A stretch of DNA of 64,000 nucleotides from Escherichia phage BF17, in sequence record MW822008.1; one strand, written 5' to 3'. Shown in pieces: positions 40,085 through 40,166 of the stretch (position 1 is the stretch's first letter; each line of letters opens with the position of its first letter). The notes beneath the pieces were generated by a model. It ran no database searches and was not told the DNA's origin. It saw only the letters and a program-made list of their open reading frames with translations. The position numbers were made by a program, and so were the translations under genes.

Positions 40085-40166
40085 CCGGGCGTATCTCAAC
40101 GGTCTTCTAAACCGTCGTTAATCGAGTAACTGGAGTATGCAGGTTCGAGTCCTGTCGCCTGGGCCA
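40085..40166 (+). tRNA. atypical tRNA-like gene: anticodon TCT, long variable arm, D-arm apparently missing
   Basis: Acceptor ccgggcg/cgcctgg, anticodon arm acggt-cttctaa-accgt identical in stem to adjacent tRNA-Ser, T-loop ttcgagt, encoded CCA; only about 5 nt where a D-arm should be. Confidence 0.35.

Follow-up and report, generated by a model that had tools for sequence, protein, structure and literature searches.

Introduction

According to a study from 2024, all known bacterial transfer RNAs (tRNAs) are cloverleaves, and the arms' dimensions are the only structural variation among cytosolic tRNAs (PMC11551756). The same work found that HisRS, EF-Tu and the ribosome of E. coli take a synthetic tRNA without D-arm, and that they do so without adaptation (PMC11551756). 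Phages are never mentioned in a review of non-canonical tRNAs from 2020 (PMC7609411). Here, we analyse an element of 82 nucleotides (nt) that is located directly downstream of a tRNA-Ser(UGA) gene, at positions 40085-40166 of a stretch of 64,000 nt from Escherichia phage BF17 (MW822008.1); this whole stretch is called the window below. The record OQ718158 (Escherichia phage vB_Ec-M-J, a 378-kb Asteriusvirus) matches the window at 100% identity. A preliminary description of the locus had considered a degenerate duplicate of the tRNA-Ser, a tRNA-like stable RNA and a structurally unusual tRNA as options, and had raised the idea that arginine codons might be read as serine. Our analysis supports the structurally unusual tRNA: The element is probably a functional phage tRNA-Arg that does not form a cloverleaf, carries the anticodon UCU and would read AGA, and probably AGG as well.

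In the full-text literature, in which the sequence itself was searched as well, we found no description of this fold; subscription-only literature was outside our reach. A catalogue of structured viral RNAs from 2023 contains a candidate, DNAVirus_2961, that overlaps ARAGORN tRNA-Arg calls only sometimes (PMC10690425). This candidate may be an earlier sighting of the family described here.

Results

A family of elements in phage tRNA clusters

BLAST searches with the element recovered full-length copies with 82-100% identity in 243 phage records. The gene is present in several lineages that are unrelated to each other, namely in Asteriusvirus, Felixounavirus including Felix O1, Vequintavirinae and Justusliebigvirus, and further in Sugarland-type T5-like phages of Klebsiella and in Karimacvirus phages of Streptomyces; in every phage record that was opened, the copy lies inside a cluster of tRNA genes. 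A motif scan of IMG/VR yielded 50 distinct members, which make up the alignment called A3 below, and a motif scan of metagenomes yielded at least 91 distinct members, 74 of them new, whose sources include gut, marine and freshwater samples among others. When phage genomes and viral contigs are pooled with metagenomes, the family comprises at least 137 distinct sequences, to which all counts out of 137 refer, and the length of its members is nearly fixed at 81-82 nt. When bacteria and archaea were scanned for the motif with one genome per species (185,579 species), no isolate bacterial genome contained a member, and only four members were found in total, all of them on metagenome-assembled contigs with dense tRNA arrays of the phage type. 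In the databases scanned, the family is restricted to phage-type contexts.

The motif TGGAGTAT is invariant among the members, but it belonged to the search patterns; the columns of the bulge at 40116-40122 were outside search pattern P1. With less biased patterns, the matches listed were mostly random and included a few extra members with variant T stems. Neither a new anticodon nor a variant of UGGAGUAUG was present among these matches, and the motif-independent sample was small.

A conserved fold without a D hairpin

Much of what had been stated in the preliminary description can be read directly from the sequence: The element starts after a gap of 4 nt behind the tRNA-Ser(UGA), it has an acceptor stem, a T-arm and an encoded CCA, and its anticodon arm exposes UCU in the loop CTTCTAA on a stem that is the same as in the tRNA-Ser. 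The D-arm is indeed missing. Acceptor and anticodon stems are connected by 7 nt (TATCTCA) rather than by the originally estimated 5 or so, and no D hairpin is present in this connector. The acceptor stem of the window copy has 7 bp including one G-U pair (G3-U70, 40087 with 40160), the acceptor/T split is 7/5, and the length without CCA is 79 nt. Anticodon and T stems are separated by 23 nt that read CGTTAAT-C-GAG-TAAC-TGGAGTAT. No open reading frame (ORF) of at least 30 amino acids covers 40085-40166.

The identity of the anticodon stem between the two neighbouring genes extends to its flanks (caacggtctt/aaaccgtcg, 40022-40042 in the tRNA-Ser and 40097-40117 in the element). ACGGT/ACCGT is also the commonest anticodon stem variant in the family (7/50 in A3), and the identity may reflect either chance or shared ancestry.

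The fold is borne out by covariation. In A3, the acceptor stem is paired in 99%, the anticodon stem in 94% and the T stem in 99% of the cases, with compensatory double changes at 7/7, 5/5 and 2/5 pairs, respectively, and this structure outscores all 500 shuffles and every slid register. In addition, the alignment contains a new helix in which CUC (40095-40097, columns 11-13) pairs with GAG (40124-40126, columns 40-42). This helix is paired in all 50 sequences of A3, with compensatory changes at each of the three pairs, as well as in 91/91 of the listed metagenome members, whose selection ignored the helix. Over the complete family, the pairs 11:42, 12:41 and 13:40 are formed in 137/137 members and occur as two, four and three pair types, respectively; the middle pair 12:41 alone is U-A in 79, G-C in 30, A-U in 23 and C-G in 5 sequences. 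RNAalifold predicts the helix independently, and it is among the top mutual-information pairs. Comparative evidence of this kind demonstrates the predicted secondary structure including the new helix.

Outside the helices, 14:39 is the most strongly covarying pair (A.C 76, C.A 28, A-U 10, C-G 9, U.G 6), which suggests a fourth layer that would be partly non-Watson-Crick. Since the bases 11-19 are contiguous, the new helix continues the anticodon stem. The predicted result is an extended anticodon helix of about 9 layers, whose 3' strand bears a conserved bulge, CGUUAAN. A helix of about 9 layers has roughly the length of a normal anticodon-plus-D limb. In A3, the anticodon loop has 7 nt with invariant U33, C35 and A37, and the alignment columns C32, T34, A36 and A37 of the bulge are invariant as well.

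The serine-type long variable arm that had been proposed initially did not hold up on the alignment. A GTTA/TAAC hairpin (columns 33-36 with 43-46) can be drawn in the window copy, but it has no compensatory pair in 50 relatives, its closing pair is unpaired or gapped in 15/50 sequences of A3, and RNAalifold does not predict it. Moreover, the GAG within it pairs with CTC at 40095-40097. Its invariant pairs, two or three depending on the count, leave the hairpin neither proven nor disproven; the structure does not need it.

Detection by tRNA models and annotation

The Rfam tRNA model RF00005 deletes its D-arm positions when it is aligned to 40085-40163 and scores the element with 32.6 bits; the other tRNAs of the window score 52-74 bits. 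Since the gathering score is 29, the element is a tRNA by the Rfam criterion; the score exceeds this threshold only when less sequence is searched. The D hairpin that defines a cloverleaf is absent. A covariance model built for the family gives 97.9 bits for the window element, 84-101 for the members and at most 38 for ordinary tRNAs.

Could the element nevertheless be a decaying duplicate or a functionless fragment of a tRNA? Default ARAGORN makes no call at this site, a search of the whole window at the Rfam gathering threshold does not list the element, and the folding energy of the single sequence is unremarkable (z = -0.61) and on its own uninformative. However, a functionless fragment would hardly be represented by at least 137 distinct sequences of 81-82 nt in many phage lineages and environments, with compensatory changes in every stem and with invariant unpaired motifs. 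We give decay, and with it the degenerate duplicate of the tRNA-Ser, next to no credence.

An ordinary cloverleaf with another anticodon has been called repeatedly. In this parse, the UCU hairpin becomes the D-arm and the anticodon is placed in CGUUAAUCG. The 121Q gene 124 (L424 421-502), which is 100% identical to the element, is annotated as tRNA-Leu(taa), the family copy of Yaboi, gene 148 (L006 1495-1573), as tRNA-Val(aac), and ARAGORN in relaxed mode (-ps80) calls Asp(atc) in the window. Such calls, which the preliminary description had named as potentially refuting, do exist, but the parses fail on the family alignment: Only 38% of the cells are paired in the anticodon stem that they require (columns 28-32 with 40-44), which is no better than in shuffles, and the covariation partners of columns 40-42 are 11-13. 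The bases taken as anticodon vary freely, and the supposed D loop is the invariant anticodon loop of the CUUCUAA type. This makes an ordinary cloverleaf extremely improbable. The mitochondrial mode of ARAGORN returned an Arg(tct) of 56 nt in the window, which we rejected as spurious because the acceptor stem is wrong. At other loci, ARAGORN now and then labels family members as Arg(tct), again with wrong boundaries.

None of the 26 full-length GenBank records that were inspected labels the gene as tRNA-Arg: It is unannotated, as in most records including OQ718158, mislabelled as tRNA-Leu, tRNA-Val or tRNA-OTHER (the latter in the copies of Riker, L002 1502-1580, and Roth39), or hidden under spurious coding sequences such as the 'hypothetical proteins' that overlap it in Felix O1, Mydo and others. 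Because the gene was never annotated as tRNA-Arg in these 26 records, inventories of phage tRNAs and analyses of codon supply undercount arginine tRNAs.

The family model gives scores of 60 and 56 bits to two divergent relatives of the fold (L105 2689-2766 and L067 13348-13429). One has 78 nt, the anticodon ACG, a bulge of 3 nt and the sequence ...UAAUUGGAAUGAUG; the other has 82 nt, the anticodon UCU and the sequence ...UAAUUGGAUAGAACAUG, which is nearer to that of a normal D loop. Each of them resides on the same contig as a standard family member. These relatives hint at a wider superfamily.

Homing endonucleases might help to move this tRNA cassette among phages: A gene for an HNH endonuclease (L002 1592-2101) begins 9 nt past the family member in Klebsiella phage Riker, and in the record of phage heid, an HNH endonuclease is annotated over the family match.

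A gene in the place of a canonical tRNA-Arg

In 21 Asteriusvirus records, the family gene is located directly 3' of the tRNA-Ser(UGA). About 11 other Asteriusvirus records have a canonical tRNA-Arg(UCU) of 77 nt at the same site with homologous flanks, and 10 of these copies are identical; one such sister phage is G17 (G17_00186). A canonical tRNA-Arg(tct) of the G17 type has no match with at least 90% identity in the 21 records that contain the family gene. The family gene replaces the canonical tRNA-Arg at the syntenic site. A similar picture emerges from the composition of the clusters: ARAGORN finds 807 tRNAs at 91 family loci, and only 2 of them are genuine canonical Arg(tct), while Lys(ttt), Thr(tgt), Gly(tcc), Leu(taa) and Ser(tga) occur 26-39 times each. 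Taken together, the allelic replacement and the near-absence of canonical Arg(tct) from the family clusters suggest that the two genes do the same job. In Felix O1-like contigs, the family gene occurs together with a canonical Arg(acg).

AGA is used 6.4 times per 1000 codons in the window and accounts for 17% of the arginine codons. In E. coli, AGA use is about 2 per 1000, so that the window is at about three times that value. We aligned 76 ORFs of the window to their G17 orthologues (mean identity 83%) and inspected the 77 positions with AGA in the window: G17 has AGA at 41, AGG at 4, CGN at 16, AAA at 6 and a serine codon at 3 of them. Because AGA aligns with arginine codons in G17 (61 in total), it means arginine in this phage.

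Predicted arginine identity

The anticodons of the family are UCU in 123, ACG in 6, CCU in 5, UCG in 2 and ACU in 1 of the 137 sequences; arginine anticodons from both arginine codon boxes are thus present in 136/137, and the two divergent subtypes that the covariance model detected have ACG and UCU as well. The anticodon spectrum is that of arginine only. The ACU belongs to one listed metagenome member (loci L304-L423) with the loop CTACTAA, in which C35 and U36 are kept; by the standard table ACU would read the serine codon AGU, and this member may be genuinely odd, or it may stem from a pseudogene or an error in sequencing.

The identity set of bacterial tRNA-Arg consists of A20, C35, U/G36 and A/G73 (PMC9976931). 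C35 and U/G36 are present in 137/137 members, and the anticodon UCU of the window copy fits. The discriminator is G in 78, A in 55, U in 3 and C in 1, so that A/G73 applies to 133/137; CCA is encoded in 91/137. As for A20, the segment UGGAG (40131-40135) contains an invariant A after an invariant GG, but it is located 3' of the anticodon arm, and the motif is part of the search pattern. The strand with this GGA may be likened to the D loop UUGGAUAG of the canonical tRNA-Arg of G17.

G3-U70 is an identity determinant of AlaRS (PMC9976931), and the window copy could therefore be charged partly with alanine. The pair is also present in the copies of Felix O1, Riker and Mydo and in the canonical tRNA-Arg(UCU) of G17 (L001 1634-1710). 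With only 8/137 members having it, we rejected G3-U70 as a family-wide alanine signal; moreover, AGA positions behave as arginine, and the window copy has C1-G72 as first pair and G73 as discriminator. A tRNA-Ala has G1-C72 and A73, which counts against the alanine reading. Partial alanylation of the window copy is therefore very unlikely.

Charging by SerRS would turn AGA and AGG into serine codons. The drawable GUUA/UAAC hairpin as a long variable arm, the G73 of the window copy and the anticodon stem shared with the neighbouring tRNA-Ser might be taken to favour this idea, but several observations oppose it: The hairpin does not covary, and the GAG in its loop pairs elsewhere in 137/137 members; the discriminator is A in 55/137; the AGA codons of the window face serine codons only 3 times but CGN 16 times; and sister phages have a canonical tRNA-Arg at the same site. 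Together with the arginine anticodons in 136/137 members, this leaves very little room for the suggestion that arginine codons are read as serine. A tRNA-Arg remains the preferred reading of the element.

Features of the locus and neighbouring genes

The features of the locus are compiled in Table 1. The promoter candidate ends 10 nt 5' of the tRNA-Ser; it is a consensus match only and no proof of function.

Table 1. Coordinates of the element, its parts and the upstream features in the window
Feature	Position	Strand	Basis or remark
Sigma-70-like promoter candidate	39951-39980	+	TTGGAA, 18-nt spacer, TATAAT, TG extension; consensus scan 10/12
tRNA-Ser(UGA), canonical class II	39991-40080	+	ARAGORN; Rfam tRNA 60.1 bits
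Acceptor stem, 5' strand CCGGGCG	40085-40091	+	pairs with 40156-40162
Connector U8-A9-U10 (TAT)	40092-40094	+	TAT 50/50 in A3; TAC in 6/91 metagenome members
New helix, 5' strand C11-U12-C13, with A14 as possible non-Watson-Crick fourth layer	40095-40098	+	covariation
Anticodon arm ACGGT-CTTCTAA-ACCGT; anticodon TCT 40106-40108	40099-40115	+	stem covariation, loop invariance
7-nt bulge CGTTAAT, 3' side of the predicted extended anticodon helix	40116-40122	+	conserved in A3
New helix, 3' strand: C39, then G40-A41-G42	40123-40126	+	same covariation as 40095-40098
Single strand TAAC-TGGAGTAT	40127-40138	+	TAA invariant; proposed stand-in for D loop and variable loop (GGA like G18-G19-A20)
T-arm GCAGG-TTCGAGT-CCTGT	40139-40155	+	stem 99% paired in A3
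Acceptor stem, 3' strand CGCCTGG	40156-40162	+	G3-U70 in the window copy
Discriminator G73 and encoded CCA	40163-40166	+	G at 40163; CCA 40164-40166

Just downstream of the element, there are three paralogous ORFs of 54 amino acids in tandem, head to tail (40188-40352, 40349-40513 and 40510-40674), the first two of which start near-identically (atgacacatgaagaatggatgaatgacattaattttagatattcggg...). G17 has three coding sequences of 165 nt at the same place (G17_00185 to G17_00183). Further downstream, two tRNA-Thr(UGU) genes (43924-43997 and 44004-44077; Rfam 73.8 and 73.9 bits) follow each other at a distance of 6 nt, and the matching region of G17 contains one tRNA-Thr(tgt). Finally, a class II tRNA-Ser of G17 has the anticodon ACT with A34 (L001 3140-3231), and its syntenic counterpart in the window (42279-42368) has GCT. 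In bacterial systems, tRNA genes with A34 are uncommon apart from tRNA-Arg(ACG).

Discussion

Our data suggest how a tRNA without D hairpin may be built and used. A phage promoter probably drives joint transcription of the upstream tRNA-Ser and the element, which would then be excised by tRNA-processing enzymes of the host; the promoter match just 5' of the tRNA-Ser makes a dimeric Ser-Arg precursor plausible. In the model, acceptor stem and T-arm are standard, whereas the D hairpin is replaced: CUC(A) pairs with (C)GAG 7-8 nt 3' of the anticodon stem, and the extended helix of about 9 layers with its bulge would stand for the anticodon-plus-D limb. The single strand UAAN-UGGAGUAU may act as the D loop, with its GG touching the T loop and the next A mimicking A20, and the molecule would adopt an L-like three-dimensional shape. 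Host arginyl-tRNA synthetase (ArgRS) could charge this RNA via C35, U36, G73 and the A20-like base. The phage, which is AT-rich and uses AGA frequently, would thus be supplied with AGA decoding.

Several points weigh against this interpretation. First, the invariance of UGGAGUAUG and GTTCGA is partly forced by the search patterns. Second, A20, the main determinant for the ArgRS of E. coli, is normally in the D loop, and its replacement by the A of UGGAG is our inference. Third, the G3-U70 pair of the window copy corresponds to the alanine identity pair, so that some mischarging with alanine is possible. Fourth, the control for canonical Arg(tct) in other viral loci is small (3/142 tRNAs) and therefore weak. 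Finally, the synthetic D-arm-less tRNA is degraded by PNPase and needs a pnp mutation to persist in E. coli (PMC11551756). In view of this decay, stability in vivo is a real question for the phage RNA.

It is also conceivable that the RNA acts outside translation, as a tRNA-like decoy or regulator that soaks up or blocks a host factor of tRNA-Arg such as a defence nuclease, a modification enzyme or ArgRS. Such a decoy would mimic the anticodon arm and the acceptor/T limb and not the whole tRNA. The unusual conserved body, which is tied to arginine over four anticodons rather than to one codon, would agree with this idea, as would the existence of immune nucleases that target tRNAs and are able to recognise the D loop, such as AriB, which does so in tRNA-Lys (PMC12409363). 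However, the element occupies the syntenic site in place of a canonical tRNA-Arg(UCU), the family clusters hold hardly any canonical Arg(tct), and the element has kept the acceptor stem of 7 bp, A/G73, the often encoded CCA, and U33, A37 and the 7-nt loop as in decoding tRNAs. A decoy is less economical given the allelic replacement, and we regard it as unlikely. For the translational tRNA-Arg that we favour, one guess is that the body was kept because it evades a host factor binding to the D-arm of tRNA-Arg. The papers on retrons and on PARIS contain no link to arginine. The full proposal, i. e. a natural non-cloverleaf tRNA that is confined to phages and to arginine, works on bacterial ribosomes and is kept to evade a host factor reading the D-arm, is offered as a tentative possibility that we consider rather more doubtful than right.

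If the RNA is charged and used, it would be a natural and widespread exception to the rule that bacterial tRNAs are cloverleaves. It would also provide a test case for how the lack of a D-arm is dealt with by ArgRS, RNase P, EF-Tu, the modification enzymes and the ribosome, and it would bear on the question why phages carry tRNAs and on changes of the tRNA body as a counter-defence to tRNA-targeting immunity. Phages of E. coli and Salmonella that are simple to work with carry the gene, including Felix O1, 121Q and PBECO4, relatives of rV5 and phi92, and T5-like phages of the Sugarland type.

How does the element relate to known tRNAs? With the canonical tRNA-Arg(UCU), as in G17_00186 and E. 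coli argU, it shares the acceptor stem of 7 bp, the T stem of 5 bp with a loop of the UUCGA type, G/A73 and CCA, the genomic slot in sister phages, the UGGA motif and the anticodon loop CUUCUAA, which is that of E. coli argU. Even its connector UA-UCUC-A resembles U8-A9 and the 5' strand of the D stem, GCUC-A, of the canonical tRNA. The two differ in that the element has no D hairpin: The partner of CUC is found 3' of the anticodon arm, where the resulting helix extends the anticodon stem, the GGA motif is 3' of the anticodon arm as well, and anticodon and T stems are 23 nt apart as compared to 5 nt in the canonical tRNA-Arg.

The closest natural parallels are the metazoan mitochondrial tRNA-Ser (AGY/AGN) species that lack the D-arm; they likewise have no D hairpin and a short connector, and some of them carry UCU. 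For them, too, a lengthened anticodon helix has been suggested. However, these tRNAs are organellar, have about 55-65 nt and a reduced T-arm, have a synthetase and an elongation factor of their own, and their identity is serine. In contrast, the phage element has 79 nt plus CCA, a full T-arm, a long conserved region behind the anticodon arm and arginine anticodons, and ordinary bacterial enzymes would have to handle it.

Allo-tRNAs have serine identity and retain both the D-arm and a genuine long variable arm. They resemble the phage family in having non-standard bodies and in having been discovered by the mining of genomes and metagenomes (Mukai et al., PMC5389517); their acceptor/T split is 8/4 or 9/3, whereas the phage family has 7/5 without a D hairpin. 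The nearest bacterial parallel is the synthetic 'mini HisT', which is D-arm-less like the phage element; Edelmann et al. (2024, PMC11551756) showed that EF-Tu, the ribosome and a synthetase from a bacterium can use it. This molecule is man-made, with the bases 11-25 deleted, has 62 nt and no compensating core (PMC11551756). The additional conserved elements of the phage family, which are absent from mini HisT, may rebuild a stable core.

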